The notes under the pieces are model-generated. The model saw only the letters and a program-made list of their open reading frames with translations, had not been told where the DNA came from and made no database searches. Made by a program: the position numbers and the translations under genes. Shown piece after piece: positions 1,345 to 63,999 of a stretch of DNA of 64,000 nt. Origin of the DNA: Chlorobiota bacterium (GTDB lineage Bacteria > Bacteroidota > Ignavibacteria > OLB7); contig CP065014.1 of NCBI GenBank assembly GCA_016700335.1, positions 1,883,788-1,947,787 on the forward strand, read 5' to 3'. Positions within the stretch are counted from its first letter, which is position 1; each line of letters starts with the position of its first letter.

Positions 1345-4320
1345 CTATTTAGTAATTAATAATTTACTCAAATATTTATTGTTATTTGAAACCATCATAA
1401 TTGTATAACTTCCACTTGGTAAATCAGAAAGATCAAAAATAAAAGTATTAATTCCCTTCTTGAATATAATTGAATTAACTAACACTTTAACTTCATTCCC
1501 TGTTAAATCATATAAGGAAACATTTATATTTTCATCATTTACGAGTCCTATATAAACTTTAGCAATTCCACTAGTAACTGGATTGGGGAAAGAAGAAGTA
1601 ATGAAATTTGCTGATGCTTTTACACCAAAACTTAGTTTATTGTTGCACCAATCAGAACCTGCTTGAAGAGATAGTAACATGTTAATATTAAACGGTATTA
1701 CATCTTCATTTCCACATGCATCACCAACAATTAGTGTATCAGTTTGTTGATTTAGAGTAGAACCTTGAATACATATTGGAATTCTTACAAATGAATGGGG
1801 TGAAATTGTAATTGGAATAATAGATGGTGGCAAACTATAAACTATATTATTGTTAAATTTTAGAGAAGAAATAATTTTAGATTTACTTCCATAATTAACA
1901 ATTTCAATACTATCAGAACATCTCCAAGTTAATGAATTTAATGTATCTAATTCAACTCCTTTACCAAATCTCAAGCCAACTGAATCTCTAGATTTTGTAT
2001 CTAAAGTTGCTAAAGTAAAACCACTTAATGTATCAGTTTTTGTAGATGTATTCCCTATTTTATCAGTCGTAATAATAGTTACATAACCATCATGATATTT
2101 ATCTTTCAATCTTATATCAACTTTAATTTCATCTGTAGGAAAATCTGATGAGTTTGGCAATACAACTACTTCACAATTTTTTAGAAGACTAAAATTTACA
2201 CTATTAACACCGGTTCCAATTTTTCTTGACTCCGAAACTTGATATGTTAAATTTGATGGGCAAGGAGGAATCAAAGTTTCAATTTTAGGTGGGAGAGTAT
2301 CAACCAAACTTTGTAAAGGGATATTAGCAATCACTCTTTCATTACACAAATTTTTAATTCTTATTTCAGTATTTATCTCAGCCATTCCTAACCATCCACT
2401 TATACAAATAGAATATTTTACCTTCTCACCTGGTTTTAAAGTTATTGGTAAAATTCCTTTTATCTTAATGTTGTTTTGTAATAACGCATTCTTAAGAGTA
2501 TCTGAAATTAATACTTCTGTAATAGTTTGTGGGAAATTTCCATAATTCTCAATCTCAAAATCCCTACAAGTATCATTTGCAGAATTTATAATAATTAAAG
2601 AATCCAAAACAATAGGTGTATTACCATTCATTCCAATTGTCCGCAAAGTGAAGCCAGGTATTGTTTTAAAAAAACTAATCTCCCTTCCTCCTGAATCAAT
2701 TGCTTTAATACCAATTTTACCATCATTATATTTATCAACTAAAGTTGCTTTAAAATAAACTGTATCAATCCCTTTAGAAAAAGCAGGAATAGTAACTTTT
2801 GTATTTTCTTGTGTTAAAACTATAATTGAGTCAATACCAGTATCAGTAATTTTACTATCAAATGCAATACCATCTAAATCTGAACATCTTAAAGAATCCT
2901 CAATTATAGGGGGATAAATATCACCAACTAATTTCCCAAAAACCATACTACCGCTGTAACCATAAGAATTTGCAGCTCCAAAACCATAAATTCCAATTCC
3001 AAATGAAGAATCACAATTAATTATATGCGAACCTTGTTGAACTTCAATTTGAGCATAAAGATAATTTGTTGTTGATACGGGTTTAAATTGGTTCGCATTT
3101 AACTTTTGTCCATCTAAAGTTAAATTTTTCAAACCATCTTTATGAATTGTTATATTAAAAAAATGACGTCTAAATTCTGGATCTATAATACTTTGAAAAA
3201 CATTGATAGAATCCCATTGCTCTATTGGTTGAATAATCATCATAAAAGGATCACCTAAAGCAGTTCCACCACTAAATGGATTTTTATTACTTTCTGCTGA
3301 ATGCTCATATTGGGCAATCAAAACTGGTAAATCTGAACTTATAAAGGAAGAGGCAGTGTATTCTTTCTCTACTGGAATCCCCTTTTGTAGAGGTGTTTGT
3401 ACAACTCCATTTAACTTCCAATTAGTATTATCAAATGCAGATAATATTCTGAAAATTGGTTTAAAAGGAGATGATGGTGTAATTACAAAATGAGGTGTAA
3501 CTATGTAATTTTTTCCCCATGTTTCTAATGGTGGAATTTGTTCACATAAATGATCACGACTTCTACCATCTAATACTGGTATAGATGCTCTTTTAACACC
3601 AGCAAATACTGCAACAGGTTTATTTCCTAAAATCTCAGTTCCACTAACATCTTGTGCATCTTTGTTAATTTCTGCTTGACCAAAGAAGACTTGTCCTTTA
3701 TTCAAATTTACATTAAATGTAGCTCCTTTTTGATTACCATTAATTTTAGCCAGAGGAGAAGAAGTAATTCTTAAAACAGTATTATCAGCAGTAGCAACAA
3801 CTGCAAATTCAGAAGGCGTATCAAAAGTTCCATTATTCCCTTGAATCAAATATCCATTTGAATAAGATAAAACAATATATCGTGGGGTCAGAACTTTTTC
3901 AGGAATTGCAACAAAAGCATCTGCAGATTTATCTCTAATTGATACACCATAAATAGTAATTTCATCATCAGCTTCAACTATTACACTTTTATTACTTACA
4001 CCAGTATTAGAATTATCTAATTCTAGATTAAATGGAATTTTAATTTCAAGTGGAGTATTTACTTGTTGAATATCATAATTGATTGGGGCAGAAAAATTAT
4101 TATTTAAAATAATTTTCAATTTTGTTAATTTGTCGCAAGACGCATATAACCTTAACTTTGAGCCATTAGTATTGCTTCCTAAATTTTCCATAAAAGCAAT
4201 ATAAAATTGCTTCCCTCGAGTATCTGATCTTACTGTTTGTGCTTGAATTAATTGAGAAGTTATAAAGTAAATTGCAATACAAAAAGTTACAATTTTATTA
4301 TAATTAATATAAATTTTCAT
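1345..4320 (-). CDS. Large secreted T9SS-cargo protein: IgGFc-binding-protein-N-terminal-like domain, Ig-like repeats and T9SS C-terminal sorting domain
   Basis: The ATG at 4320 gives the signal peptide MKIYINYNKIVTFCIAIYFITSQLIQAQ; the ORF-track start at 4392 is an upstream in-frame Met. The N-terminal region GKQFYIAFMENLG...YGYSGSMVFG resembles the IgGFc_binding N-terminal domain. There is an internal repeat (LVDKYNDGKIGIKAIDSGG...GFTLRT vs LKDKYHDGYVTIITTDKIG...GFTLAT). The last ~80 aa (FPNPVTSG...LYDLTGNEV...LPSGSYTIMM...KLLITK) look like a T9SS type-A sorting domain. Confidence 0.8.
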   Translation of the reverse strand: MKIYINYNKIVTFCIAIYFITSQLIQAQTVRSDTRGKQFYIAFMENLGSNTNGSKLRLYASCDKLTKLKIILNNNFSAPINYDIQQVNTPLEIKIPFNLELDNSNTGVSNKSVIVEADDEITIYGVSIRDKSADAFVAIPEKVLTPRYIVLSYSNGYLIQGNNGTFDTPSEFAVVATADNTVLRITSSPLAKINGNQKGATFNVNLNKGQVFFGQAEINKDAQDVSGTEILGNKPVAVFAGVKRASIPVLDGRSRDHLCEQIPPLETWGKNYIVTPHFVITPSSPFKPIFRILSAFDNTNWKLNGVVQTPLQKGIPVEKEYTASSFISSDLPVLIAQYEHSAESNKNPFSGGTALGDPFMMIIQPIEQWDSINVFQSIIDPEFRRHFFNITIHKDGLKNLTLDGQKLNANQFKPVSTTNYLYAQIEVQQGSHIINCDSSFGIGIYGFGAANSYGYSGSMVFGKLVGDIYPPIIEDSLRCSDLDGIAFDSKITDTGIDSIIVLTQENTKVTIPAFSKGIDTVYFKATLVDKYNDGKIGIKAIDSGGREISFFKTIPGFTLRTIGMNGNTPIVLDSLIIINSANDTCRDFEIENYGNFPQTITEVLISDTLKNALLQNNIKIKGILPITLKPGEKVKYSICISGWLGMAEINTEIRIKNLCNERVIANIPLQSLVDTLPPKIETLIPPCPSNLTYQVSESRKIGTGVNSVNFSLLKNCEVVVLPNSSDFPTDEIKVDIRLKDKYHDGYVTIITTDKIGNTSTKTDTLSGFTLATLDTKSRDSVGLRFGKGVELDTLNSLTWRCSDSIEIVNYGSKSKIISSLKFNNNIVYSLPPSIIPITISPHSFVRIPICIQGSTLNQQTDTLIVGDACGNEDVIPFNINMLLSLQAGSDWCNNKLSFGVKASANFITSSFPNPVTSGIAKVYIGLVNDENINVSLYDLTGNEVKVLVNSIIFKKGINTFIFDLSDLPSGSYTIMMVSNNNKYLSKLLITK

Positions 4321-10433: not shown

Positions 10434-13296
10434 TAAAAACCAAAAAAGACCTCAAAGAAAAGAAAATCAATTCTCTTTAAGGTCTTTTTCTTATTTCTAT
10501 CCCTTTAATCTACTTCACTACTGTCATCATCTTTGTCTCTGTCCATACTCCCGACTTTATTGTGTAGTAATAATTTCCACTCGGTAAATTTCCTACATCT
10601 ACTGTTAACTCATAATTCCCTGCCTTTTGATCCTCCGATACCAATCTCTGTATCTCTTTTCCCTCCATATTCTGTAACACTATCTCTGTTCTTCCTTCTA
10701 ATCCTATACTGTACTTTATCTTTGTACTAGGATTAAATGGATTTGGGACATTTTGGCTCAGTGTATATGTTCCATTTATTAACTCTATTGCTCGTAAACT
10801 TAACCCACATATTGGATATATATCTATCTTTGTTGTTGATGGATTTATTGTTGTACAACCTTGATTTGTTATGATCTTTACATCTATTTCACGCTCTAAC
10901 TTCTCCGTTAATTGTACATCCATATTGAACTTTAACAACTCTCCTGATGTGGTAAATCCTCCAGGATTCTGTACATCTATTACATAGATGCCTGCTTTGC
11001 TTAAGTTATTCTTTGTATACGATACGCCTGCTCCTCCTATCTGGATACTTGACTCATCTATACTCAACTGTACTGGATCATAATTTATTGTTAACTGTAT
11101 GCTCTTTAAATCCACTAAATTACTAAACCCACCTAACAACGATACTACACAGCCTAACTTCCCGCCTATCTCTCCCTTATTATCCCTTGTGCCTGTTAAC
11201 ACTACTCCACTACTTATTGTCTCTGCATAACTGCTTCCACTTATATCTAATAACATTGGGCTCGTTGGTGTGCCTGCATCATGAGTTACTTCTAGTTTCC
11301 CTACTTCCTTACCTGTTTTGCTTGGACTATACTTTATCCCTATCTGTCGCTTCTCGCCTGGCTTTAATGTGAAACTTGTTACTCCACTTACCAAACTGAA
11401 ATCTCCTGATAAACCTATCAACTTTAACCCTAATACCTTCACATCCTTCTGACCACTATTGCTTACCTCTGCATTTAATATCGTATCCTTTGGTGCACAT
11501 ATATTATCCGCATTCGCTCCTTTCCCAACTATACTCGTTGATAATGAAAATCCATTCCCTGACCACTTTGATGTTGTATCTACTCCATCTAATGTTATTG
11601 CTTTCATTCTTGCTACTCTTTGTCCTACCGCTTTCGCTATGAATGATCCTTTCATTGTATAGGTCGTATTCCCTGGCTTTAATACTATTGGGGTTGCTAA
11701 CTTTACATTTACCACACTCTCACTTGAGCTGTAATCGTTCTCTGGGGTTTGATTACTAAACTCCCACTCTGTTATTGTTACTGAATCTAAATACTGTCCT
11801 ACTGCTTGAAATTCTACATCTCTGATTGTACTTACTGTTGTCCCTACTTCCATTGTTCCATAATCATAATCTTGGGTTATCAACCCTGGACGGGTGCCAA
11901 ATCCATCTAATGTTGATTTTACTCCACTTGGTCCTTGTACCACATTGTAGTTCATCACCATCTGTCTCCCTGCTGTTGTTGTTGGATTAAACTCTACATC
12001 TAAACCTACTGAATCATTCGCTGATATATTTAAATCTGACAATGCATCTAATGTTGTTTGGGGTAATCTGAAATCATTTATATCTCCAGTACTTGCCAAC
12101 AACCCTCTTATTATCGCTGGGGCTGTTCCATAATTCTTTAACATCACTTTTCCTGTATACCATCCTGTCCCTACTCGCTTCCTTCCCCAATCATAATTTG
12201 TTGCTATCAATTGTGGTTGTATTCCCTTTCCTTGCAATATCCCCAAACTATCTACACCTGTTGCATTACTGCTGAATACTATTGTATCTAAATAACTTGC
12301 TACACTTCCTGGACTAAATGTTATTCTTAACGTCTTTGATTCTCCTGGGGCTAAATCAAATGGAAATGCCAACATTCCATCTACTAATTTAAACTCTAGC
12401 TTCTTTGGTCCTTTTGCTCCTGTTACCGTTAGTATCGCATCACTTAATGCTGGATCTATTGGATTTGATACTTCTATTGTATATGCTGGACTTGTTGTAT
12501 TTACTATCAATGTTCCAAAGTCTTTATCTGTTACATTTATCAATGGGGCTCCTACTTTTGCTTTTATCAATGATATGTATTTCTTATTACATTCATTCTC
12601 TATGCCTACTGAATCCTCATACTTCCCATTTGTTGTTGATGTGAATTCTATTTGAGCTACTATGCTTGAGCCTGGATCACCCGCTTTTGATAACGTAAAA
12701 CCGCCTATTGGGCTTAGTATCTTAAATCCTGGCGTATTCCTTTGTAGTTGGATATTCTTTAACTTTACTTCTCGTTCTGCTAAGTTTGTTATTGTTAATT
12801 TCTTTACTACTTTTACGCCTGGAAATAATGTGCCAAAGTTTACTGGGGATGGCGTTATTGTTACATTGAATGCATTATACTGTATTGTATCTATTGTATA
12901 ATTCCCTGCTTGGTCTGATATTATAACTACTGCTTGGGCATTCTGACTTAAATCTATTACTTTCAATGAATACTTTACTTCCCTATCCGTGCCTGGTATG
13001 AAATCTGCTACTGTTATACTATAATTATATGTTGCATCTGGATCTAAATCTATTGTTGATATATTGCTCCTTATTTTACTGTCATCTGGTAAATCTGTTG
13101 TGGTTGCTTCATAGTTTCCAAAACAATCAATTGTATCTTTTATTACTGGTGCATCCTTATCTGGTCTTGACAAATCTCCTACAGCAACTGATAATGGATA
13201 TCCATAACTATCAAAACTTCCAAATCCATATATATATCCTGCAAATGGCTTAGGACCTCTTACTCTGTATGTTCCTGGATTTATTGCTATTGTTTT
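10434..13296. repeat. Copy A of a near-identical 2.86-kb direct repeat (3' UTR/terminator plus 3' two-thirds of the T9SS paralog gene)
   Basis: Matches 14782-17644 at a constant offset of 4348 bp. I found only three substitutions (12817, 13069, 13129). The ORF-track proteins are identical from AINPGTYRVRGPKPF to the C-terminus. Confidence 0.95.
10437..10487 (-). terminator. Rho-independent terminator of T9SS paralog A
   Basis: On the minus strand: AGACCTTAAAG...CTTTGAGGTCT (11-bp stem, one G-U pair) followed by TTTTTT. Lies about 25 nt after the stop at 10510. Duplicated at 14785-14835. Confidence 0.75.
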
Positions 13297-14598
13297 CCCA
13301 ATGTATGTTACCCCATTTATTTTAGTTGGGAACTTTTTAACATCAAATCCAAATTTGCTTGGGAAAGACTCCCATTTATCTGTACCGCCTTGAGCTATTT
13401 CAATGTCATTATAACCAGCAGAATCACATACAAAATTTACATAATTTTTTGGGAAATCAGCTGATGGAGTAGTAAATATTAATTGATTTTGATATTGCTC
13501 AACAGGAGTAAGAACTAACATAAAAGGATCACTTTCTACTCCATCCCAGTTTTGAGAATTATTATATTGAGCTATATAAATAGGTTTATCCCCAGTAAAT
13601 TCTATTAACTCCCTTTTATTATGCAAATAATTAAACCAGCCTTCTCCTTCTTTACCACCTTTTTTAGGTAATTTACCCCAAACAGTACCATTTATTGATA
13701 CTGTTGTGTTATCTTCACCAGCAAAAATTCTATACATATCGGTCTTGATTCTTGTAGCAAATGGAATTGAATGATATAATTTACCCCACGCTGAAACTGG
13801 CAACATCATTTCTTCAATGTGATCACAAGCTGCAAACCGTGCATCAGGTAAATATGTACAATTTTGACCACTCATAACCGCAACAGGCTTACTACTCTGA
13901 ATTAAAGTACCTGTTAAATCTGCCAAAGTAACATCAGATAAAGCCCCAAATACGTCACCTTTATTCATTGAAATATTAAAAGGACCTTTAGAACCACTAT
14001 AATTTGGTAATTTTTGATCTGAAGGTAATGTAATCAAAACATCTGTTTCATCATAAGGAGAAACAATAACAAATTCAGAAGGTAATCTTTGAGTTGTTCC
14101 AATTTCAGCAGCAGATGCAACAAGATATTCTTTACCTAATCCATTTGTTGGAAGAATTAACATACCATCACTTGTAAAAGAAGTTCTGTTCATTCCATAA
14201 ACTACTATTGGTGCAACTGATTCAACATGAATTGCTTTATTTGGATAAACTTCAGCGTTCGGAATAGGAGAATTATCATCCCTTACTGTTCCATATTGAG
14301 CATCTACATTTGAAAGGTCATAAGTTATAATATCATATGGAACTGTAAATAAAGATTTTAATATCTTAGAAGTCCCAATAGAAATAGTAACTTTGGTTCT
14401 AGTACCTGCTGTAATGTACAATCTACAATATTTAATGGTTGCTCCAAATTCCCAATTATGTGGAAATGAAAACCAATAATCTTTGCCAGAATTACTTGGT
14501 CCGAAAGGGATTGATGGTAAGTTCTTACCCCCTTGAGAGAATATAGTTCCATTAAGCAACAAGATAGTTAAAGATACAAAAAGTAATAATTTTTTCAT
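10510..14598 (-). CDS. Giant secreted T9SS-cargo protein, paralog A: IgGFc-binding-N-terminal-like domain, multiple Ig-like (choice-of-anchor-D/PapD-like) repeats, cohesin-like region and T9SS sorting domain
   Basis: Signal peptide MKKLLLFVSLTILLLNGTIFSQ. N-terminal region GKDYWFSFPHNWE...YGYPLSVAVGDL. Repeated units of the form 'FG.l..G......T.tN.g...v.i' (e.g. VNFGTLFPGVKVVKKLTITNLAEREVKLKNIQL). LVDLKSIQLTINYDPVQLSID is cohesin-like. The C-terminus LSQNVPNPFNPSTKIKYSI...LPSGNYYYTIKSG...MMTVVK is a classic T9SS type-A CTD. Confidence 0.85.
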   Translation of the reverse strand: MKKLLLFVSLTILLLNGTIFSQGGKNLPSIPFGPSNSGKDYWFSFPHNWEFGATIKYCRLYITAGTRTKVTISIGTSKILKSLFTVPYDIITYDLSNVDAQYGTVRDDNSPIPNAEVYPNKAIHVESVAPIVVYGMNRTSFTSDGMLILPTNGLGKEYLVASAAEIGTTQRLPSEFVIVSPYDETDVLITLPSDQKLPNYSGSKGPFNISMNKGDVFGALSDVTLADLTGTLIQSSKPVAVMSGQNCTYLPDARFAACDHIEEMMLPVSAWGKLYHSIPFATRIKTDMYRIFAGEDNTTVSINGTVWGKLPKKGGKEGEGWFNYLHNKRELIEFTGDKPIYIAQYNNSQNWDGVESDPFMLVLTPVEQYQNQLIFTTPSADFPKNYVNFVCDSAGYNDIEIAQGGTDKWESFPSKFGFDVKKFPTKINGVTYIGKTIAINPGTYRVRGPKPFAGYIYGFGSFDSYGYPLSVAVGDLSRPDKDAPVIKDTIDCFGNYEATTTDLPDDSKIRSNISTIDLDPDATYNYSITVADFIPGTDREVKYSLKVIDLSQNAQAVVIISDQAGNYTIDTIQYNAFNVTITPSPVNFGTLFPGVKVVKKLTITNLAEREVKLKNIQLQRNTPGFKILSPIGGFTLSKAGDPGSSIVAQIEFTSTTNGKYEDSVGIENECNKKYISLIKAKVGAPLINVTDKDFGTLIVNTTSPAYTIEVSNPIDPALSDAILTVTGAKGPKKLEFKLVDGMLAFPFDLAPGESKTLRITFSPGSVASYLDTIVFSSNATGVDSLGILQGKGIQPQLIATNYDWGRKRVGTGWYTGKVMLKNYGTAPAIIRGLLASTGDINDFRLPQTTLDALSDLNISANDSVGLDVEFNPTTTAGRQMVMNYNVVQGPSGVKSTLDGFGTRPGLITQDYDYGTMEVGTTVSTIRDVEFQAVGQYLDSVTITEWEFSNQTPENDYSSSESVVNVKLATPIVLKPGNTTYTMKGSFIAKAVGQRVARMKAITLDGVDTTSKWSGNGFSLSTSIVGKGANADNICAPKDTILNAEVSNSGQKDVKVLGLKLIGLSGDFSLVSGVTSFTLKPGEKRQIGIKYSPSKTGKEVGKLEVTHDAGTPTSPMLLDISGSSYAETISSGVVLTGTRDNKGEIGGKLGCVVSLLGGFSNLVDLKSIQLTINYDPVQLSIDESSIQIGGAGVSYTKNNLSKAGIYVIDVQNPGGFTTSGELLKFNMDVQLTEKLEREIDVKIITNQGCTTINPSTTKIDIYPICGLSLRAIELINGTYTLSQNVPNPFNPSTKIKYSIGLEGRTEIVLQNMEGKEIQRLVSEDQKAGNYELTVDVGNLPSGNYYYTIKSGVWTETKMMTVVK

Positions 14599-14781: not shown

Positions 14782-17644
14782 AAAAAACCAAAAAAGACCT
14801 CAAAGAAAAGAAAATCAATTCTCTTTAAGGTCTTTTTCTTATTTCTATCCCTTTAATCTACTTCACTACTGTCATCATCTTTGTCTCTGTCCATACTCCC
14901 GACTTTATTGTGTAGTAATAATTTCCACTCGGTAAATTTCCTACATCTACTGTTAACTCATAATTCCCTGCCTTTTGATCCTCCGATACCAATCTCTGTA
15001 TCTCTTTTCCCTCCATATTCTGTAACACTATCTCTGTTCTTCCTTCTAATCCTATACTGTACTTTATCTTTGTACTAGGATTAAATGGATTTGGGACATT
15101 TTGGCTCAGTGTATATGTTCCATTTATTAACTCTATTGCTCGTAAACTTAACCCACATATTGGATATATATCTATCTTTGTTGTTGATGGATTTATTGTT
15201 GTACAACCTTGATTTGTTATGATCTTTACATCTATTTCACGCTCTAACTTCTCCGTTAATTGTACATCCATATTGAACTTTAACAACTCTCCTGATGTGG
15301 TAAATCCTCCAGGATTCTGTACATCTATTACATAGATGCCTGCTTTGCTTAAGTTATTCTTTGTATACGATACGCCTGCTCCTCCTATCTGGATACTTGA
15401 CTCATCTATACTCAACTGTACTGGATCATAATTTATTGTTAACTGTATGCTCTTTAAATCCACTAAATTACTAAACCCACCTAACAACGATACTACACAG
15501 CCTAACTTCCCGCCTATCTCTCCCTTATTATCCCTTGTGCCTGTTAACACTACTCCACTACTTATTGTCTCTGCATAACTGCTTCCACTTATATCTAATA
15601 ACATTGGGCTCGTTGGTGTGCCTGCATCATGAGTTACTTCTAGTTTCCCTACTTCCTTACCTGTTTTGCTTGGACTATACTTTATCCCTATCTGTCGCTT
15701 CTCGCCTGGCTTTAATGTGAAACTTGTTACTCCACTTACCAAACTGAAATCTCCTGATAAACCTATCAACTTTAACCCTAATACCTTCACATCCTTCTGA
15801 CCACTATTGCTTACCTCTGCATTTAATATCGTATCCTTTGGTGCACATATATTATCCGCATTCGCTCCTTTCCCAACTATACTCGTTGATAATGAAAATC
15901 CATTCCCTGACCACTTTGATGTTGTATCTACTCCATCTAATGTTATTGCTTTCATTCTTGCTACTCTTTGTCCTACCGCTTTCGCTATGAATGATCCTTT
16001 CATTGTATAGGTCGTATTCCCTGGCTTTAATACTATTGGGGTTGCTAACTTTACATTTACCACACTCTCACTTGAGCTGTAATCGTTCTCTGGGGTTTGA
16101 TTACTAAACTCCCACTCTGTTATTGTTACTGAATCTAAATACTGTCCTACTGCTTGAAATTCTACATCTCTGATTGTACTTACTGTTGTCCCTACTTCCA
16201 TTGTTCCATAATCATAATCTTGGGTTATCAACCCTGGACGGGTGCCAAATCCATCTAATGTTGATTTTACTCCACTTGGTCCTTGTACCACATTGTAGTT
16301 CATCACCATCTGTCTCCCTGCTGTTGTTGTTGGATTAAACTCTACATCTAAACCTACTGAATCATTCGCTGATATATTTAAATCTGACAATGCATCTAAT
16401 GTTGTTTGGGGTAATCTGAAATCATTTATATCTCCAGTACTTGCCAACAACCCTCTTATTATCGCTGGGGCTGTTCCATAATTCTTTAACATCACTTTTC
16501 CTGTATACCATCCTGTCCCTACTCGCTTCCTTCCCCAATCATAATTTGTTGCTATCAATTGTGGTTGTATTCCCTTTCCTTGCAATATCCCCAAACTATC
16601 TACACCTGTTGCATTACTGCTGAATACTATTGTATCTAAATAACTTGCTACACTTCCTGGACTAAATGTTATTCTTAACGTCTTTGATTCTCCTGGGGCT
16701 AAATCAAATGGAAATGCCAACATTCCATCTACTAATTTAAACTCTAGCTTCTTTGGTCCTTTTGCTCCTGTTACCGTTAGTATCGCATCACTTAATGCTG
16801 GATCTATTGGATTTGATACTTCTATTGTATATGCTGGACTTGTTGTATTTACTATCAATGTTCCAAAGTCTTTATCTGTTACATTTATCAATGGGGCTCC
16901 TACTTTTGCTTTTATCAATGATATGTATTTCTTATTACATTCATTCTCTATGCCTACTGAATCCTCATACTTCCCATTTGTTGTTGATGTGAATTCTATT
17001 TGAGCTACTATGCTTGAGCCTGGATCACCCGCTTTTGATAACGTAAAACCGCCTATTGGGCTTAGTATCTTAAATCCTGGCGTATTCCTTTGTAGTTGGA
17101 TATTCTTTAACTTTACTTCTCGTTCTGCTAAGTTTGTTATTGTTAATTTCTTTACTACTTTTACACCTGGAAATAATGTGCCAAAGTTTACTGGGGATGG
17201 CGTTATTGTTACATTGAATGCATTATACTGTATTGTATCTATTGTATAATTCCCTGCTTGGTCTGATATTATAACTACTGCTTGGGCATTCTGACTTAAA
17301 TCTATTACTTTCAATGAATACTTTACTTCCCTATCCGTGCCTGGTATGAAATCTGCTACTGTTATACTATAATTATATGTTGCATCTGGATCTAAATCTA
17401 TTGTTGATATATTGCTTCTTATTTTACTGTCATCTGGTAAATCTGTTGTGGTTGCTTCATAGTTTCCAAAACAATCGATTGTATCTTTTATTACTGGTGC
17501 ATCCTTATCTGGTCTTGACAAATCTCCTACAGCAACTGATAATGGATATCCATAACTATCAAAACTTCCAAATCCATATATATATCCTGCAAATGGCTTA
17601 GGACCTCTTACTCTGTATGTTCCTGGATTTATTGCTATTGTTTT
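14782..17644. repeat. Copy B of the near-identical 2.86-kb direct repeat
   Basis: See copy A; the offset is 4348 bp. Confidence 0.95.
14785..14835 (-). terminator. Rho-independent terminator of T9SS paralog B
   Basis: Sequence identical to the terminator at 10437-10487. Confidence 0.75.
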
Positions 17645-18952
17645 AGCAATGTAAGTAACCCCATTTATTTTAGTTGGAAATCTTTTGAAATCAAATCCAA
17701 ATTTGCTTGGGAAAGACTCCCATTTATCTGTACCGCCTTGAGCTATTTCAATGTCATTATAACCAGCAGAATCACATACAAAATTTACAAAATTTGCTGG
17801 ATAATCAGCTGATGGGGTAGTGAATAACAATTGAGTTTGATATTGCTCAACAGGAGTAAGAACTAACATAAAAGGATCGCTTTCTACTCCATCCCAGTTC
17901 TGAGAATTGTTAATCTGTTGTACATAAATAGGTTTATCTCCAGTAAATTCTATTAATTCTCTTTTATCATGTAAATAACTAAACCAACCTTCACCTTCAT
18001 TCCCACCTTTTTTATTTAAAGTACCCCATTCAGTACCATTTATAAATATTTTAGTATTATCAGCACCAGCAAAAACTCTATAAAGATCTGTTTTTCTTCT
18101 TGTTGCGAAAGGAATTGAATGATATATTTTACCCCAAGCGGTAACTGGTAACATCATTTCTTCAATATGATCACAAGCTGAGTATCTTGGGTCAGGTAAC
18201 CAAGGGCATAAACATCCAGAACAAACTGATATTGGTTTATTAGCAATTATTTTAGTTCCAGAAAAATCTGCATATTGATCAATAGATTGACAAGAAAATC
18301 CATCTCCTTTATTCATTGTAATATTAAAAGGACCATTTTTTCCATTATGATTAGGAGATCTTTGTCCAGAAGGTAATTCAATAGTAATTTCTGTATCATC
18401 AAATGGAGATGATATAACGAATTGAGATGGGAATTTTCCAGCAAAAGCAGATCCCTGTAAATTATCTGGTCCGGCTGCAATAATATATTCTTTTCCGATA
18501 GCATTTGTTGGTAATAACAACATACCATCACTTGTAAACGAAGTTCTGTTCATTCCATAAACTACAATTGGTGCATCAGCTTTTACATAAACAGCTTTAC
18601 CTGGATAAACTTGATCGTCACTTACTGGATCAGTAGTTGAAAATGGAAACATCTGTGCATCTATTGTAGATAAATCATAAGTAACAATATCAAATGGTAC
18701 AGTATAAATTGTTTTCTTATTTTTAGAGCCAATTGCAATTGTTACTTTGGTTCTAACTCCAGCAGTAATATATAACCTACAATACTTAATTGAAGCACCA
18801 TATTCATAATTTGCAGGAAAATTAAAATAATATTCTTTTCCAGAATTTGAAGGTCCGAATGGAATATTTGGTAATGGCTTACCATTTTGAGCAAATGAAA
18901 AACTTAATACAATTAGAAAATTAATTGTAAATAGTAGTAGATTTCTGTACAT
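14858..18952 (-). CDS. Giant secreted T9SS-cargo protein, paralog B (same architecture as paralog A)
   Basis: Signal peptide MYRNLLLFTINFLIVLSFSFAQ. The N-terminal ~437 aa are homologous to paralog A but diverged, with indels. The remaining ~927 aa are identical to A. Confidence 0.85.
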   Translation of the reverse strand: MYRNLLLFTINFLIVLSFSFAQNGKPLPNIPFGPSNSGKEYYFNFPANYEYGASIKYCRLYITAGVRTKVTIAIGSKNKKTIYTVPFDIVTYDLSTIDAQMFPFSTTDPVSDDQVYPGKAVYVKADAPIVVYGMNRTSFTSDGMLLLPTNAIGKEYIIAAGPDNLQGSAFAGKFPSQFVISSPFDDTEITIELPSGQRSPNHNGKNGPFNITMNKGDGFSCQSIDQYADFSGTKIIANKPISVCSGCLCPWLPDPRYSACDHIEEMMLPVTAWGKIYHSIPFATRRKTDLYRVFAGADNTKIFINGTEWGTLNKKGGNEGEGWFSYLHDKRELIEFTGDKPIYVQQINNSQNWDGVESDPFMLVLTPVEQYQTQLLFTTPSADYPANFVNFVCDSAGYNDIEIAQGGTDKWESFPSKFGFDFKRFPTKINGVTYIAKTIAINPGTYRVRGPKPFAGYIYGFGSFDSYGYPLSVAVGDLSRPDKDAPVIKDTIDCFGNYEATTTDLPDDSKIRSNISTIDLDPDATYNYSITVADFIPGTDREVKYSLKVIDLSQNAQAVVIISDQAGNYTIDTIQYNAFNVTITPSPVNFGTLFPGVKVVKKLTITNLAEREVKLKNIQLQRNTPGFKILSPIGGFTLSKAGDPGSSIVAQIEFTSTTNGKYEDSVGIENECNKKYISLIKAKVGAPLINVTDKDFGTLIVNTTSPAYTIEVSNPIDPALSDAILTVTGAKGPKKLEFKLVDGMLAFPFDLAPGESKTLRITFSPGSVASYLDTIVFSSNATGVDSLGILQGKGIQPQLIATNYDWGRKRVGTGWYTGKVMLKNYGTAPAIIRGLLASTGDINDFRLPQTTLDALSDLNISANDSVGLDVEFNPTTTAGRQMVMNYNVVQGPSGVKSTLDGFGTRPGLITQDYDYGTMEVGTTVSTIRDVEFQAVGQYLDSVTITEWEFSNQTPENDYSSSESVVNVKLATPIVLKPGNTTYTMKGSFIAKAVGQRVARMKAITLDGVDTTSKWSGNGFSLSTSIVGKGANADNICAPKDTILNAEVSNSGQKDVKVLGLKLIGLSGDFSLVSGVTSFTLKPGEKRQIGIKYSPSKTGKEVGKLEVTHDAGTPTSPMLLDISGSSYAETISSGVVLTGTRDNKGEIGGKLGCVVSLLGGFSNLVDLKSIQLTINYDPVQLSIDESSIQIGGAGVSYTKNNLSKAGIYVIDVQNPGGFTTSGELLKFNMDVQLTEKLEREIDVKIITNQGCTTINPSTTKIDIYPICGLSLRAIELINGTYTLSQNVPNPFNPSTKIKYSIGLEGRTEIVLQNMEGKEIQRLVSEDQKAGNYELTVDVGNLPSGNYYYTIKSGVWTETKMMTVVK

Positions 18953-21400: not shown

Positions 21401-21885
21401 TTCGATTTAACTTTTTCATTAGCATTTCTTAATCTTTTGCTAAGCATTTTTATAATACCCTTTGCAACTTCCACCCTTGTATCCATTAATTCAAATAAAT
21501 CTTCTTGATCTAATTTCAATAAGAGTGTATCTGTTATTGTTGTTGCGCTAGCACTTCTAGCTTCAGTATCTAACAAAGACATTTCACCAAAAAGATCTTT
21601 TTCTTTAAGAATAGCAACAACAACTCCACCCTTATGTATTTTAACTTCTCCTTTGAAAATTACATACATACATTGACCAATTTCACCTTCATTAAAGATT
21701 AAGCTATTAGCTTCCAATTCTAGTTCTTCTAAAATTTCACTCACCTCCACTAAAACATTTGTTGGAGTTTCAGAAAAAATGTCTAATGATTTTAAAGTTA
21801 GAATTTTTTCAATTTGTAATAATCTCTCACTTGAATCGCTTTCTTTTTTATGCATTTGAACTAAATTTTTATAATTATTAGGCAA
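21397..21885 (-). CDS. Cyclic-nucleotide-binding (cNMP/CAP-effector) domain protein
   Basis: FNEGEIGQCMYVIFKGEVKIH...LFGEMSLLD..ARSASATT is the canonical cNMP-binding cassette. No DNA-binding HTH follows. The start overlaps the upstream gene's stop by 8 bp. Confidence 0.8.
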   Translation of the reverse strand: MPNNYKNLVQMHKKESDSSERLLQIEKILTLKSLDIFSETPTNVLVEVSEILEELELEANSLIFNEGEIGQCMYVIFKGEVKIHKGGVVVAILKEKDLFGEMSLLDTEARSASATTITDTLLLKLDQEDLFELMDTRVEVAKGIIKMLSKRLRNANEKVKSN

Positions 21886-24655
21886 TACTCATTGCAGTCT
21901 CTTTAATTAAATTATCACTACTTAAAGTTAAGAAATCTATATACTCATTTTTATTATTCCCATGATATTCGTTTAGAGAATAAGTACATGCTGCTTTAGT
22001 CCATCTATCAAAAAAATATATTTCATCATAAATTATGATTTGGAATATATCATTTTCTGTATATGATGAATTTGATTTATCATTAAATTTCAAACTTTTA
22101 ATTTTCATATCATTAGGTTCAAATAATTCAATAAATCTTAGAGAAATATCTTTATCAACTTCAATTTCAAAAACTTCTAATGCATTTGCAATTGTATCCT
22201 TTTTATTGTAATGAAAAGCAGTTCTAACTTTTTTTATTTTATTAGAATCATAAATGAATGATAGTATTAATAATAATACTTCTCTTAATTTTTCTAATTC
22301 ATATACCAATGCGTCTAACAGATGATGCATTCCATCAGTTTGAGAAAGGAAATTTATCATATTAGTAATTTTAGTAGCAACATTTAAAGACTCTTGAATT
22401 AAATCATTAAAAAATAATTTATTATCTTCTTTAACTCTAAAATCAGTTATATGGAGAGCTTGTAAAATAGTATATCTATTTACTTTATCAAATTTTAAAT
22501 GTTCTAATAATACCTTAATAGATAAACTTGAATTAATATTCCCAAGAATGTAAATTAATTTTTGGTTTTGATTCTGAGTTAATGTATTTATATATAATAT
22601 CTTTTTAATTTCAACAACAGAATTATCACCTCCATTAATCAATGCATCGATACATATTTTTTCATATTTAATATCTTTAAATAATTTAACTACTTTTTCA
22701 ATTAAATACTTGTTTTTAATTTTACCACATGCAATTATACTTTCTTTCACAACTATAAATTCTTCATCATTTAAAAGTTTTAAAATTGGTTTGTAAAATG
22801 AATTTGTTTTTAAATCTCCTATAATTTCAGCTGCAGTTTTTCTTATTATAGTATAAGGTGAATTTATCATTTCAATTAATTTTTGTCCAGCAACTACAAT
22901 TGCAGATATTCCACCACTACTCATCAAACCGATAATAGCAGATTTTGATAATTCTATATTATCAGAATTCACATAAATTTCTGATTCATCAACATTTTCA
23001 GGTGTAAGCAAACAAATCGACTTTATTAAATCTGGGAGTATAAATAAATATGATTCATCATTTATCATTTTATTAATTAAAGGAACAGCATTAATTAATT
23101 TTAAATGAGTTATCAAAGCAATACTTTCTCTAATAACAATTTCATTTTTATTTTCTAACCCAGCAAGAACAATCTCAGATAATTCTGGTGTGAACCTTTT
23201 GCCTACTATGTTTAAAGTATGCATAGCTTCAGATTGATCACCAAATTTTACTTTTTCTAAAAAAACTGATTTTGTTCTCTCATTAGTAATATCTAGTTCT
23301 GATCCAAAGGAATATCGTTTGCTAATTGCTTTAACTAAAGTTCTAACATATTCATTTTCAATTAAAAATATTATCAGAATCCATACAATAATAAATACAA
23401 CTATTAAACCACTTAAGGCAATTATATTAAGTCCTTCATCGCTTGTTCCTTTTGTAAAATGAACGAATAGAAAAGAAATTATACCACTAAATACTAAAGC
23501 AAAAGGATCTACAACACCTTTAACAACAGCATGACTTTTAAGTCTTAGTTGCAAAGAAAGTGGCTGCATCATTGACAAAAAAACTGGATCTTGTATAGAT
23601 GTTTTAAGCATTTCAGATAAAACAGCTGCTAATCCAAACAAATATAAAGTTGAAGTAATTGAATTGTTATTACTTAATAATGAGTTTATTAAAATGTATC
23701 CTAAAATTAATATTAGAATAATTGGAGATATTAATAATGAGAATTTTAAACCAATTCTGTTCATTACTCTACCAGTTAGAACTAATCTTATTAATAATGC
23801 TAAAAGCCTACCAAGTGCAAAAAATTTACTTATAAATCCAGCAAGTTCAATATCTGTGTGAGAATGATGTTTTACTTCAACATAAAAACCAAAATTTATT
23901 AATGTAACAATTGTTATAATTATAAATGATAAAATTGATAAGTATTTTATTAGTTTATTGACAAAAAAATCTGATAATGAAAATGACCCTAATAAATCAG
24001 TGGTACCATGTTCCAATTTAATTTTATTATGATGTACATGTTTTACTTCAATGTCTAACTTACCAGCTTTATCTAAATTTCTGCAAACAAAAAAAGAAGA
24101 CAAAATGAAAAATGATGATACATATAATGCATTTTCTGTTGAAACATAATGCAATAATATTGGAACTACAGAATACCCAATTAATTTTGCAGGAATATCT
24201 CCTGCACCAATAATACCAAACAATCTTTTACTTTGCCTTATATCAAAAGTCAATGCTGCAACTCCCCAAAATTCTAAATTATTTAAAAGGTAAATTGCAT
24301 AATACCAACAGAACATAAAAAAAATGACCCAGGGAGATTGGTCATAAATTAAAAAGAATCTTAAAAGCAAAATACTAAATCCCATAAAGAGAATTACCCC
24401 TGGAGCAGTTTTCTTAACTGGCAATTTATGTTCTATTTTAGTATAAAAATATCCTATAACAAGCAACAAAGCACCTGAAACTACATAAACATTTGAAAGT
24501 AATGATGGTTGAAATCTATTAAGAAATAATGTTAAAGCGATTGTATTAAAAACAGCTACTCCTATTCCTTGTAACAATTGAAGTAAGAAAAATCTTGATA
24601 CAAGGAATACCTCATCATCATGAATATTTAACAATTGTAAAATTCTTTTTTTCAT
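21878..24655 (-). CDS. Multi-pass membrane protein (ATP/ADP-translocase/MFS-like, ~12 TM) fused to a HEAT-repeat cytoplasmic domain
   Basis: The N-terminal ~430 aa are hydrophobic helices resembling the TLC/Npt-type MFS fold. Residues ~470-720 show HEAT/PBS-lyase-like repeats (AGLENKNEIVIRESIALITHL; SPYTIIRKTAAEIIGDL; LLNDEEFIVVKESIIACGKI). The C-terminal ~200 aa are unassigned. Confidence 0.55.
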   Translation of the reverse strand: MKKRILQLLNIHDDEVFLVSRFFLLQLLQGIGVAVFNTIALTLFLNRFQPSLLSNVYVVSGALLLVIGYFYTKIEHKLPVKKTAPGVILFMGFSILLLRFFLIYDQSPWVIFFMFCWYYAIYLLNNLEFWGVAALTFDIRQSKRLFGIIGAGDIPAKLIGYSVVPILLHYVSTENALYVSSFFILSSFFVCRNLDKAGKLDIEVKHVHHNKIKLEHGTTDLLGSFSLSDFFVNKLIKYLSILSFIIITIVTLINFGFYVEVKHHSHTDIELAGFISKFFALGRLLALLIRLVLTGRVMNRIGLKFSLLISPIILILILGYILINSLLSNNNSITSTLYLFGLAAVLSEMLKTSIQDPVFLSMMQPLSLQLRLKSHAVVKGVVDPFALVFSGIISFLFVHFTKGTSDEGLNIIALSGLIVVFIIVWILIIFLIENEYVRTLVKAISKRYSFGSELDITNERTKSVFLEKVKFGDQSEAMHTLNIVGKRFTPELSEIVLAGLENKNEIVIRESIALITHLKLINAVPLINKMINDESYLFILPDLIKSICLLTPENVDESEIYVNSDNIELSKSAIIGLMSSGGISAIVVAGQKLIEMINSPYTIIRKTAAEIIGDLKTNSFYKPILKLLNDEEFIVVKESIIACGKIKNKYLIEKVVKLFKDIKYEKICIDALINGGDNSVVEIKKILYINTLTQNQNQKLIYILGNINSSLSIKVLLEHLKFDKVNRYTILQALHITDFRVKEDNKLFFNDLIQESLNVATKITNMINFLSQTDGMHHLLDALVYELEKLREVLLLILSFIYDSNKIKKVRTAFHYNKKDTIANALEVFEIEVDKDISLRFIELFEPNDMKIKSLKFNDKSNSSYTENDIFQIIIYDEIYFFDRWTKAACTYSLNEYHGNNKNEYIDFLTLSSDNLIKETAMSIA

Positions 24656-30993: not shown

Positions 30994-31039
30994 GATTTTT
31001 GATTGAAATTATTTTTTAATATAACTAATTTATAAACAG

Positions 31040-31113
31040 TACCGAAGGAGGGATTTGAACCCCCGACACACGGATTATGATTCCGTTGCTCTAACCTACT
31101 GAGCTACTTCGGC
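31040..31113 (-). tRNA. tRNA with CAT anticodon (Met elongator, or Ile2 if lysidine-modified)
   Basis: 74-nt manual fold: GCCGAAG acceptor (G1-U72 wobble), D-arm GCTC..GAGC, anticodon arm ACGGA-ATCATAA-TCCGT, T-arm GGGGG-TTCAAAT-CCCTC. Not initiator-like: no C1xA72 mismatch and no GGG/CCC anticodon stem. Confidence 0.85.
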
Positions 31114-34492: not shown

Positions 34493-34565
<73 letters not shown>

Positions 34566-34689
34566 CTAAACTTATATTTTATTATAATTTGTTATAATTC
34601 CTTTCATATTCTTACTTCCCGATTTTCACTATTCTAATTTTTTTCAATTGATTTTCAAAATTAATTAAAGTTTTAAATTTATATTCTTT

Positions 34690-60657: not shown

Positions 60658-62670
<2,013 letters not shown>

Positions 62671-62714
62671 TTAAATATTTTATTTAGTTTTTTAAATTCA
62701 ATCAAAAAAAATTT

Positions 62715-62993
62715 CTATCTAACAATAATTTCTAAAATAACTTCACTACCAAAATGAATGTTAACTTTTTTTCTAATTTCTTCACTTCTTATTATAATTT
62801 CTGTTCTCCAAGTTGAATTCTGAGTTTTTAAAAACATTTTCCCATTTTCAATTTTTTCAACCTCTGTATTCTTAGCTAAAATTTCCCCAACTATTTCTTT
62901 CCAATAAAGTGGAACAGATTCTTGAGCAACTTTTTGTTCCAAGTTATTTTTTCTTAACCATTCTTTTATAGCTGATCCAATTGATTCAGTCAT
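62715..62993 (-). CDS. DUF721-domain protein (DciA-family-like)
   Basis: 92 aa in the conserved recF-DUF721-gyrB position. The pattern W..IVG..... T....I..G.L.....S.W..E resembles DUF721. Confidence 0.6.
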   Translation of the reverse strand: MTESIGSAIKEWLRKNNLEQKVAQESVPLYWKEIVGEILAKNTEVEKIENGKMFLKTQNSTWRTEIIIRSEEIRKKVNIHFGSEVILEIIVR

Positions 62994-63033
62994 ACATTTA
63001 AATTGTTCTATTTATTTAAATATTTTATAATCT

Positions 63034-63999
63034 TCAAACAAACTCATTCAAACTAACCTCTCCATTTTTTACATTTATTATCCCTGATTCTATGTTACTA
63101 TAAAATGGAATATTTTTAATTGAAACAGTTGTAATAAATATTTGTGCTAATGAATGAGTTGCATGAAAAACCTTTTCAGAGCGTTCCTCATCTAATTCAC
63201 TAAAAATATCATCTAACAATATAATAGGTGTTTCCCCAAGTTTGCTCGATAAGAATCTAAATTCAGCAATTTTCATAGCAGTAATTAAAGTTTTATGTTG
63301 ACCTTGACTAGCTGAAAGACGAGCTTCTAAGCCATTAATCTTGATCTTCAATTCATCTCTATGAGCTCCAAACAATGTTGCTCCCCTTCTTAATTCTTCT
63401 TTTTTAATCTGTTTACTTTTTAACCATAATGCATCACGATAATCATCGATTAATGGTAAAGGTTTGTGAACTGAATTAGGGGAATATTTTAATTCTACAA
63501 TATCATTATTATTTGATAATTCTAAAACTGTTTTGGTAAAAACAATCTCGAATTCAGCTATAAATAATGCTCTTTCAAACATTAACTTTGCAGATAAATT
63601 TATTAGCATCTCGTCGAATGGTTCTAACAAAATATCTGGTATAGTTTTGTTATTTTTAACTGAATCAATTAAAAGAGCATTCCTATGTTTTAATACTCTT
63701 CTATAATCAATTAGTGTATCTAAGTAACTTCTTTTAGCTTGTGATATAACAATATCTATAAATCTTCTTCTTTCAGATGGTGCTCCATTAGTGATTATCT
63801 TTAAATCTGGAGATAAAACAATTGTTGGAGCAACACCTATAATTGATGCAGCTGAGCTAACTTTTTCACCATCCAACCAAATTGTTTTCCCCTGGGCTGT
63901 ATCATATAAAACTTCAATTTTTCTTTTAACTCCTAAGTCAGTTTGAAACTCTAATATAGCTTCAATTTTTTTTTCACCACTTCTAATAATATTCTGTTC
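63034..63999 (-). CDS. recF: DNA replication/repair protein RecF (N-terminus outside window)
   Basis: LFGAHRDEL, SQGQHKTLITAMKIAE and ILLDDIFSELDEERS. The frame stays open upstream of the TTG at 63876 to the window edge (my translation: ...EQNIIRSGEKKIEAILEFQTDLGVKRKIEVLYDTAQGKTIWLDGEK). Confidence 0.9.
   Translation of the reverse strand, partial: EQNIIRSGEKKIEAILEFQTDLGVKRKIEVLYDTAQGKTIWLDGEKVSSAASIIGVAPTIVLSPDLKIITNGAPSERRRFIDIVISQAKRSYLDTLIDYRRVLKHRNALLIDSVKNNKTIPDILLEPFDEMLINLSAKLMFERALFIAEFEIVFTKTVLELSNNNDIVELKYSPNSVHKPLPLIDDYRDALWLKSKQIKKEELRRGATLFGAHRDELKIKINGLEARLSASQGQHKTLITAMKIAEFRFLSSKLGETPIILLDDIFSELDEERSEKVFHATHSLAQIFITTVSIKNIPFYSNIESGIINVKNGEVSLNEFV

Follow-up and report, generated by a model that had tools for sequence, protein, structure and literature searches.

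Two tandem genes in an AT-rich bacterial chromosome switch their codon usage abruptly within the reading frame. They lie in a 64-kb window (28.4% GC) of contig CP065014.1 from a Chlorobiota bacterium and are co-oriented on the minus strand, which carries all of their parts described below: gene A (10510-14598) encodes 1362 aa and its paralogue, gene B (14858-18952), 1364 aa. The 5' parts of both genes (13325-14598 in A and 17645-18952 in B) are written in host-type codons, whereas the remainder forms a recoded block that runs through the terminator. In A this block occupies 10435-13324 (codons ~427-1362, the stop codon and a 75-nt 3' untranslated region, UTR), and in B 14783-17644 (codons ~436-1364, the stop codon and the 3' UTR). 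The step is best explained as a recombination junction, and the near-identity of the two copies as gene conversion. We tentatively favour a scenario, to which we give somewhat less than an even chance, in which A and B are recombination mosaics that were joined in a conserved motif and homogenised by conversion, the silent sites of the block having been selected in an unsampled relative.

The block, its two ends and its copies

Positions 10435-13296 and 14783-17644 differ at only 3 of 2862 nt. All three differences are synonymous (with A given first, ATT/ATC, AGG/AGA and GGC/GGT, i.e. the changes T/C, G/A and C/T), and the identity takes in the stop codon together with the 75 nt 3' of it. This shared 3' UTR (10435-10509) contains an intrinsic terminator in which UUUUUUGGUUUUU comes after a 20-bp stem and for which a hairpin with a minimum free energy (MFE) of -26.4 kcal/mol (z -3.5) is predicted. 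The A/B identity (10435/14783) stops at most ~3 nt from where the terminator U tract ends, which is the predicted 3' terminus of the mRNA. Such an ending could be due to chance (~1 in 20 if the junction could fall at any intergenic position), and it is also the expected look of a transcript-derived conversion tract. On the other side, 5' of 13297, identity falls patchily through 94%, 92% and 80% to ~60-70%, with ~60% at the 5' end. Since the N-terminal 430 aa of A and B are only 68% identical and many synonymous differences have accumulated there, the duplication is old. A near-identical tract with diverged flanks and patchy edges (3/2862 nt vs 60-94% identity upstream) is the configuration by which gene-conversion tracts are recognised.

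We located the codon-usage step by a likelihood change point on the frequency of T at the third position (T3) of four-fold degenerate and isoleucine codons. In A it falls between codons 425 and 427 (13320-13324; support 13290-13338; delta lnL 107) and in B between codons 436 and 438 (17641-17645; delta lnL 100); the corresponding estimate from all codons, ~13017, is less sharp. An original prediction, made from the window sequence, had placed the switch within about 50 nt of the identity break at 13297, and the change point comes within ~25 nt of it. The joint zone of A (13129-13338, codons ~421-490) spans the conserved motif PGTYRVRGPKPFAGYIYGFGSFDSYGYPLSVAVGDL. Here, 87 identical nt (codons 391-419) are followed by a differing 45-nt island (codons 420-434) and then by the long identical tract. 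The island holds nine A/B differences (13294-13338 vs 17642-17692), among them GTA ACA GGG in A vs GTT ACT GCT in B, and block-type codons stand at positions 430, 431 and 434 in A where B has the host type. The block as a whole retains 24 T-ending codons, six of which lie within its first 64 codons (433, 448-449, 471-472 and 490), some as neighbours. A patchwork of this kind would be typical of a mismatch-repaired heteroduplex. The joint lies inside the match to the PF17517 IgGFc_binding(-like) domain (aa 144-458 of A, E = 1.5e-57), immediately 5' of the most conserved motif of the family, PGTYRxRGPxPFAGYIYGF..YDSYGYPLSVAVGDL, and therefore not at a domain border. It is because of this sharp step beside a conserved motif, the patchy joint and the tract ending at the terminator that we interpret the boundary as a recombination joint.

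Both copies also carry an antisense match to a sigma-70-type promoter on the plus strand (TTGACA, 17 nt, GATAAT; 11/12) at 13167-13195 and 17515-17543, which points toward the 5' parts of A and B; Bacteroidota-like promoters differ from that consensus.

As the genome is metagenome-derived and the block is accompanied by runs of antisense open reading frames (ORFs), a chimeric contig, a collapsed repeat or an overlapping antisense gene had to be considered. The probability of any of these is negligible. An identical protein A is encoded in six independent assemblies, whose DNA departs from the window sequence at no positions other than the three A/B sites, a result of repeat collapse, and Logan contigs of several studies reproduce gene A together with the joint. 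Unitig depths in two DNA runs were 39-45 for the repeat vs 21-23 for its flanks. Each genome therefore has exactly two copies of the block, with none joined to other N-termini. Further copies on other N-terminal domains, for which the original prediction had proposed a search, are thereby out, all the more so as the protein cluster at 90% identity has 19 members, each of them a variant of A or B. One RNA contig (12344-14676) spans the joint and extends into the 5' UTR. The antisense ORFs had been ascribed to the codon bias, rightly so: they are 60-79 aa long, Leu-rich and of low complexity, and their frame reads sense positions 2-3-1'. Because A at sense position 3 strips stop codons from this frame and adds NTN codons to it, the ORFs are a passive by-product. 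We rejected an overlapping antisense gene, since no ORF exceeds 79 aa and the frame arithmetic suffices.

Both genes are transcribed. According to assembled RNA contigs, which carry no strand information, gene A is the best covered gene within 4.5-24 kb in four metatranscriptomes (depth 13-33 vs 0-10), and gene B has a contig depth below that of A. The metatranscriptome contigs (runs X20 and X26) differ singly at 12718, 13487, 13624, 14984, 15011, 15080, 15686 and 15971, so that a slightly different strain must have been transcribed; DNA assemblies of other studies are otherwise clonal. In another near-complete assembly (3,138,347 nt) gene B is split in two (686 and 570 aa), and a short contig of GCA_049290935.1 fuses gene A to the sequence downstream of B. 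The 2.9-kb repeat thus gives rise to annotation and assembly errors in public records.

Silent sites of the block

At four-fold degenerate sites of the block, the third base is A, C, G or T with frequencies of.72/.08/.15/.05, and purines (R3) amount to 0.87. The corresponding A/C/G/T values are.37/.03/.06/.54 for the N-terminus of A,.45/.03/.02/.50 for that of B,.43/.04/.05/.47 for gene C (1345-4320) and.43/.05/.05/.475 for 43 other genes of the window. The switch is thus real, and with T3 at four-fold sites dropping from.50-.54 to.05 it is stronger than had been stated; over all codons, third-position purine on the coding strand rises from ~0.44 to ~0.70. Isoleucine is written as ATA in 69 of 76 cases (91%; host 30%), lysine as AAG in 63% (13% in the host) and glutamate as GAG in 62% (17%). 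None of the 79 serines uses TCT, and AGY makes up 59% of serine codons vs 22-25% elsewhere; in NAY codons, C is not raised. In windows of 100 codons, T3 at four-fold sites is at most 0.114 in 34/34 block windows, whereas 458 windows of other genes have a mean of 0.482 (sd 0.092) and a minimum of 0.231. This sliding-window comparison leaves no overlap between block and host, so that the block lies outside the host range of codon usage, as is expected of an acquired segment. Six further genes beyond the window are host-like and lack the pattern, and no other gene in the ~72 kb read (the window and 8.6 kb beyond it) matches it. Nor do other genes that are long or encode secreted proteins, namely gene C and those for 925 and 834 aa, share the bias.

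The strand composition changes accordingly. Pyrimidines make up 0.63 of the plus strand in both block copies, as opposed to 0.51 for each 5' part and 0.52 for gene C, and the earlier counts of 42/60 C+T at 10510-10569 and 28/60 at 1381-1440 are exact. On the sense strand the block has 62.7% purine (5' part 51.5%, other genes 54.1%), 23.7% T vs 34%, and a C-G of -0.094 vs ~-0.05. Codon positions 1 and 2, by comparison, have a base composition near the host values. To relate the protein to GC content we used the FYMINK and GARP amino-acid fractions, which follow GC across 14 orthologues with known local GC; the values of the block (FYMINK 0.291, GARP 0.222) are those predicted for ~28% GC. The anomaly is purely synonymous. 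The amino-acid composition therefore excludes a recent import from the common high-GC members of the family, and a high-GC donor followed by amelioration was likewise rejected because C-ending codons are not raised.

The silent sites carry further marks. Runs of five or more A or T are missing from the 2799 nt of the block, where 27 would be expected at the host rate of 9.6/kb (Poisson P ~2e-12); seven are found in each of the two 5' parts. Even after synonymous codon shuffling, 5.3+-1.7 A runs of this length would be found instead of none. At lysine, glutamate and glutamine (K/E/Q) codons the wobble base is set by the following base, with G before A or T and A before G. Moreover, G-ending K/E/Q codons become more and more frequent from 5' to 3' (0.33, 0.41, 0.39, 0.44, 0.42, 0.60, 0.75, 0.78, 0.79) while T avoidance and C usage stay level, so the block is not uniform in composition. 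NAY codons remain at 0.08-0.25 C where K/E/Q reach 0.79 G, and this strand asymmetry rules out GC-biased gene conversion. In folding predictions the block mRNA is unremarkable (-21.4 vs -22.3 kcal/mol per 150 nt), and selection for unstructured mRNA was rejected because the block MFE equals that of other genes. Together, the silent-site features point to selection and a patchy recombination joint, and away from a simple mutational bias.

It is difficult to reconcile these marks with a strand-specific mutational process, in which conversion via a single-stranded or RNA/cDNA intermediate at the transcript 3' end would have altered the block while purifying selection left synonymous changes only. 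The block end within ~3 nt of the terminator U tract, the strict strand asymmetry with G raised in K/E/Q and C not raised in NAY, and the 3'-to-5' gradient of G-ending codons would all fit such a process. Homopolymer avoidance and neighbour-dependent wobble are, however, selective in kind, the conversion of serine TCN to AGY takes multi-step changes, the three A/B differences are not adenine-specific, and the window contains no reverse transcriptase or gene like those of diversity-generating retroelements (DGRs). We also know of no process that gives T>A plus A>G on one strand. Hence we regard this explanation as very unlikely. A DGR or other retroelement as such was rejected, given that no reverse transcriptase occurs in the window and the differences do not lie at adenines; in domain scans of the window ORFs of at least 120 aa no RVT domain was found.

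If selection shaped the silent sites, it may have done so in place. A block that has always been native, with conversion merely keeping the copies alike, could have been moulded by selection on the distal 2.8 kb, which in such long, strongly expressed mRNAs for secreted proteins would be particularly exposed; the proposed agents are Rho- or T-tract-dependent premature termination, U-directed RNA cleavage and slippage. Wobble-purine bias shields transcripts from Rho in bacteria with runaway transcription, and Rho targets are T-rich with C>G (Dierksheide et al. 2026, PMC13323073). In composition, the block resembles this bias in its purines at four-fold wobble positions, low T, C<G and pyrimidine-rich antisense strand, and by T, C-G and purine it is less Rho-prone than the 5' part or the other genes. 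Host genes average 54% purine, like runaway-transcription species (PMC13323073). In addition, gene A exceeds its neighbours in transcript abundance in all four metatranscriptomes; the context-dependent wobble, the purge of homopolymers and AGY serine are selective marks; and the rise of G-ending K/E/Q codons from 0.33 to 0.79 is a positional effect. The "specially constrained" module of the original prediction draws some support from the context-dependent wobble and from the zero homopolymer count. Host-like amino acids and a donor found nowhere also fit a native block, and the closest orthologue, L007 (36% GC), shows a weak version of the homopolymer deficit, with 3.6 runs/kb in the module vs 7-11 in the N-terminus and neighbouring genes.

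Several observations speak against recoding in place. The step is completed within ~10 codons inside a domain, with no gradient, and the predicted folding of the block mRNA is ordinary. The bias touches neither the 5' 1.3 kb of these mRNAs nor gene C and the 925-aa and 834-aa genes, and the pattern is missing from orthologues in ~30 genomes. Where the published Rho-avoidance bias is genome-wide at ~54% purine (PMC13323073), here one 2.8-kb block reaches 63% with a T3 of 5%, and the same A/B transcript has 51% purine next to it. An organism-wide extreme purine bias was not encountered, the other genes having 54% purine and A3 about equal to T3. As the 5' parts are old and yet have retained host codons and homopolymers, the force that shaped the block cannot have acted, in this genome, on the remainder of these mRNAs. 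On balance, we consider selection in place rather unlikely, if the main competitor. The more specific version, in which a native block is actively maintained by region-specific selection and is immune to Rho- and T-tract-dependent termination and to slippage, we consider unlikely.

Family relatives and the origin of the block

A and B are probably exported cell-surface proteins with a PF17517 "head", a long Ig-like "stalk" and a C-terminal sorting domain. This assignment follows from four elements of their sequences. N-terminal Sec signal peptides, MKKLLLFVSLTILLLNGTIFSQ and MYRNLLLFTINFLIVLSFSFAQ, were read by eye straight off the translations; the PF17517 domain comes next; the mid-part consists of several Ig-like domains of the choice-of-anchor D/ASH/HYDIN type (NF012200, 101.7 bits, cut-off 45); and a type A sorting domain of the type IX secretion system (T9SS) occupies aa 1285-1355 (PF18962, 29.6 bits, cut-off 27; TIGR04183, 23.3 bits, cut-off 23). 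A search of PDB sequences found no related solved structure.

A protein search with the block alone recovered only full-length relatives (P0002-P0016) of 1364-1436 aa and 25-43% identity. The relatives of the block (P0002-P0016 and L012-L027) share the order PF17517, Ig-like domains and T9SS C-terminal domain (CTD), so the architecture of A and B is ancestral. By this architecture and their length, both proteins belong to the choice-of-anchor D/PF17517 long-form family of ~1365-1436 aa. A genome scan with the block gave 18 loci, again of this architecture and nearly all in metagenome-assembled genomes of Kapabacteria, Ignavibacteria or "Chlorobiota". The reading of the genes as chimeras of a native N-terminal domain and a foreign module thus holds in one respect, as the genes are mosaic, with a sharp joint on the repeat boundary and a 3' block that is compositionally unique in the part of the genome read. 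It fails in the other. That a native N-terminal domain was newly fused to an unrelated foreign module of ~950 aa is highly improbable: the compositional step at the joint would suit such a fusion, but all relatives of the module have the same N-terminal domain and the same length, the joint lies within the PF17517 match, and the module/N-terminus identity ratios vs orthologues are ordinary (0.72-0.87). A foreign origin of the module was not demonstrated either, the anomaly being synonymous, the amino acids host-like, the donor missing and the trees not clearly discordant; the module-alone search suggested as a test for another lineage yielded at best 43% identity, always with the same architecture.

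Trees were built by neighbour-joining on corrected p-distances. In the block tree, A and B group with P0002 at 98% bootstrap, whereas in the N-terminal tree the position of A and B is not fixed and the N-terminus of P0002 diverges from all others. A clear discordance between the two trees was not established. Searching with the N-terminus uncovered, in related genomes, a family of "short" paralogues of ~680-785 aa (P0022-P0036; L017, L019 and L011). In these, PF17517 is followed by the initial ~150 aa of the block and by the CTD, and they often reside on the same contig as a long form. In the N-terminal tree, short and long forms group by lineage. Paralogues of this long/short PF17517 family have therefore exchanged parts recurrently, and the grouping indicates that the head domain may have evolved in concert throughout it. 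Neither gene C nor a short-form paralogue qualifies as the source of the N-termini. The original prediction had listed gene C as the third paralogue, but its N-terminal domain is only 27% identical and shows no counterpart of the module by clear homology, so that gene C should be regarded as a distant relative. Among proteins of any source the top identity to the N-terminus of A is no more than 57%.

From these data it is reasonable to propose the following course of events. A and B are old tandem paralogues in an AT-rich (28% GC), Kapabacteria-like bacterium of activated sludge, and their 3' 2.86 kb, which begin at codon ~427/436 and extend through the terminator, would be a single recombination block. 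In a first step, a diverged homologue of the same full-length gene would have recombined with one resident copy, with a crossover in or beside the most conserved motif of the family that left a patchy joint, and the other end just past the terminator. In a second step, gene conversion would have carried the block into the second paralogue, and it would since have kept the copies identical. The silent-site "dialect" of the block may have been shaped by strong selection rather than mutation, with a purine wherever the code permits (NNA/NNG, ATA, AGY serine, AAG/GAG). It would yield a U-poor, slippage-free mRNA with G>C, of a composition like that shown to be protective against Rho. An import from an unsampled, equally AT-rich relative is favoured by the absence of the dialect from the 5' 1.3 kb, from the other genes and from the orthologues.

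A number of points weigh against this proposal. The ~72 kb read belong to a genome of 3.15 Mb. No homology between A and B is visible past the terminator, although conversion into the second gene needs 3' homology. None of the ~30 orthologues (36-65% GC) has a T3 near 5%, A>>T at silent sites or an intragenic step. No donor was detected among 5.8 billion clustered proteins, the best non-self match being 43% identical, and activated sludge is heavily sampled, yet the 90% cluster consists of A/B variants only. P0002 comes from another low-GC relative, so that vertical descent would give the same grouping in the block tree. Domain scans of the window found no mobile-element or recombinase genes nearby, and the amino-acid composition of the module is host-like. 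Finally, the bias of the block is more extreme than any genome-wide usage known to us. Scans of genomes, metagenomes and viruses found nothing nearer than the 43%-identical relative. As the viral scan gave no relatives, a phage origin was dismissed. The idea of a family-wide property was also dropped because the ~30 orthologues lack the step and only L007 shows a weak homopolymer deficit.

Mosaic genes that arise by recombination with a diverged homologue are well known, e.g. penA and pbp2x, as is homology-facilitated illegitimate recombination. A and B resemble the penA/pbp2x mosaics in having a sharp intragenic breakpoint, blocks of unlike history, a crossover by a conserved stretch and a patchy joint. 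They differ in that the donor lineage is not known, the parts are distinguished by their silent-site dialect and not by protein divergence, and the block reaches through the terminator and is tandemly duplicated. Concerted evolution of paralogues by gene conversion is likewise familiar, for instance from tufA/tufB and rRNA operons. With tufA/tufB the twin genes share a long identical tract (3/2862 nt) beside diverged flanks and a patchy decay; unlike there, the tract coincides with a codon-usage step and only the 3' two-thirds are homogenised. Horizontally acquired DNA is reportedly atypical in composition and subject to amelioration, as described by Lawrence and Ochman. The block is like such DNA in being a bounded segment with codon usage far off the host, and unlike it in being part of a gene, with host-like amino acids and host-like GC at positions 1 and 2, and with neither a mobility gene nor a donor. 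DGRs, too, involve two near-identical copies and a downstream hairpin, and they target surface-protein genes at the 3' end. A and B, however, have no reverse transcriptase nearby, a tract of 2.9 kb rather than ~0.1 kb and differences that lie off adenines, and both copies are complete, expressed genes.

There is nothing unusual in intragenic mosaicism or gene conversion as such. What is unfamiliar is a transcript in which the use of T-ending codons changes 10-fold at a step, and this step is further set apart by its purely synonymous nature, the total loss of homopolymers and the lack of a donor in public data. If the block was imported, it would imply an AT-rich lineage, so far unsampled, whose silent-site regime goes beyond that of any known genome, and it would mean that 3' gene segments can be swapped between homologues together with their terminators. 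If it was maintained in place, "normal" and "purine-coded" parts on one mRNA would amount to a natural experiment, which could be used to test the recently proposed connection of wobble purines with Rho and transcript completion and could inform the design of genes for AT-rich hosts. Native recoding would then represent the most extreme natural purine code for transcript completion, acting on only part of a gene.

Neighbourhood of genes A and B

Near word-for-word copies of the sequence occur in activated-sludge and wastewater runs of several studies from 2015-2025. The housekeeping genes of the window (tgt, lptD-like, lolA, tatC, lysS, gcvT, priA, recN and gyrB) are ordinary, and besides A and B two further proteins carry a T9SS tail. 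dnaN, recF, dciA and gyrB follow one another on the minus strand at or just past the right end (60658-63876; L039 1-9947). From this gene row the window probably adjoins the replication origin, in which case A and B would probably be leading-strand genes ~45-55 kb away from it; dnaA was not seen in the 8.6 kb past the right end.

An Rfam scan found four tRNAs and nothing else. Two of the tRNA genes have a CAT anticodon (31039-31113 and 34493-34566), and one of them could encode a lysidine-modified tRNA-Ile2, the reader of ATA, which accounts for 91% of the isoleucines of the block. The ORF for 925 aa (21878-24655, minus strand) pairs a weak match to the major facilitator superfamily (aa 133-346, under the Pfam cut-off) with HEAT repeats (aa 591-661), an unusual combination.

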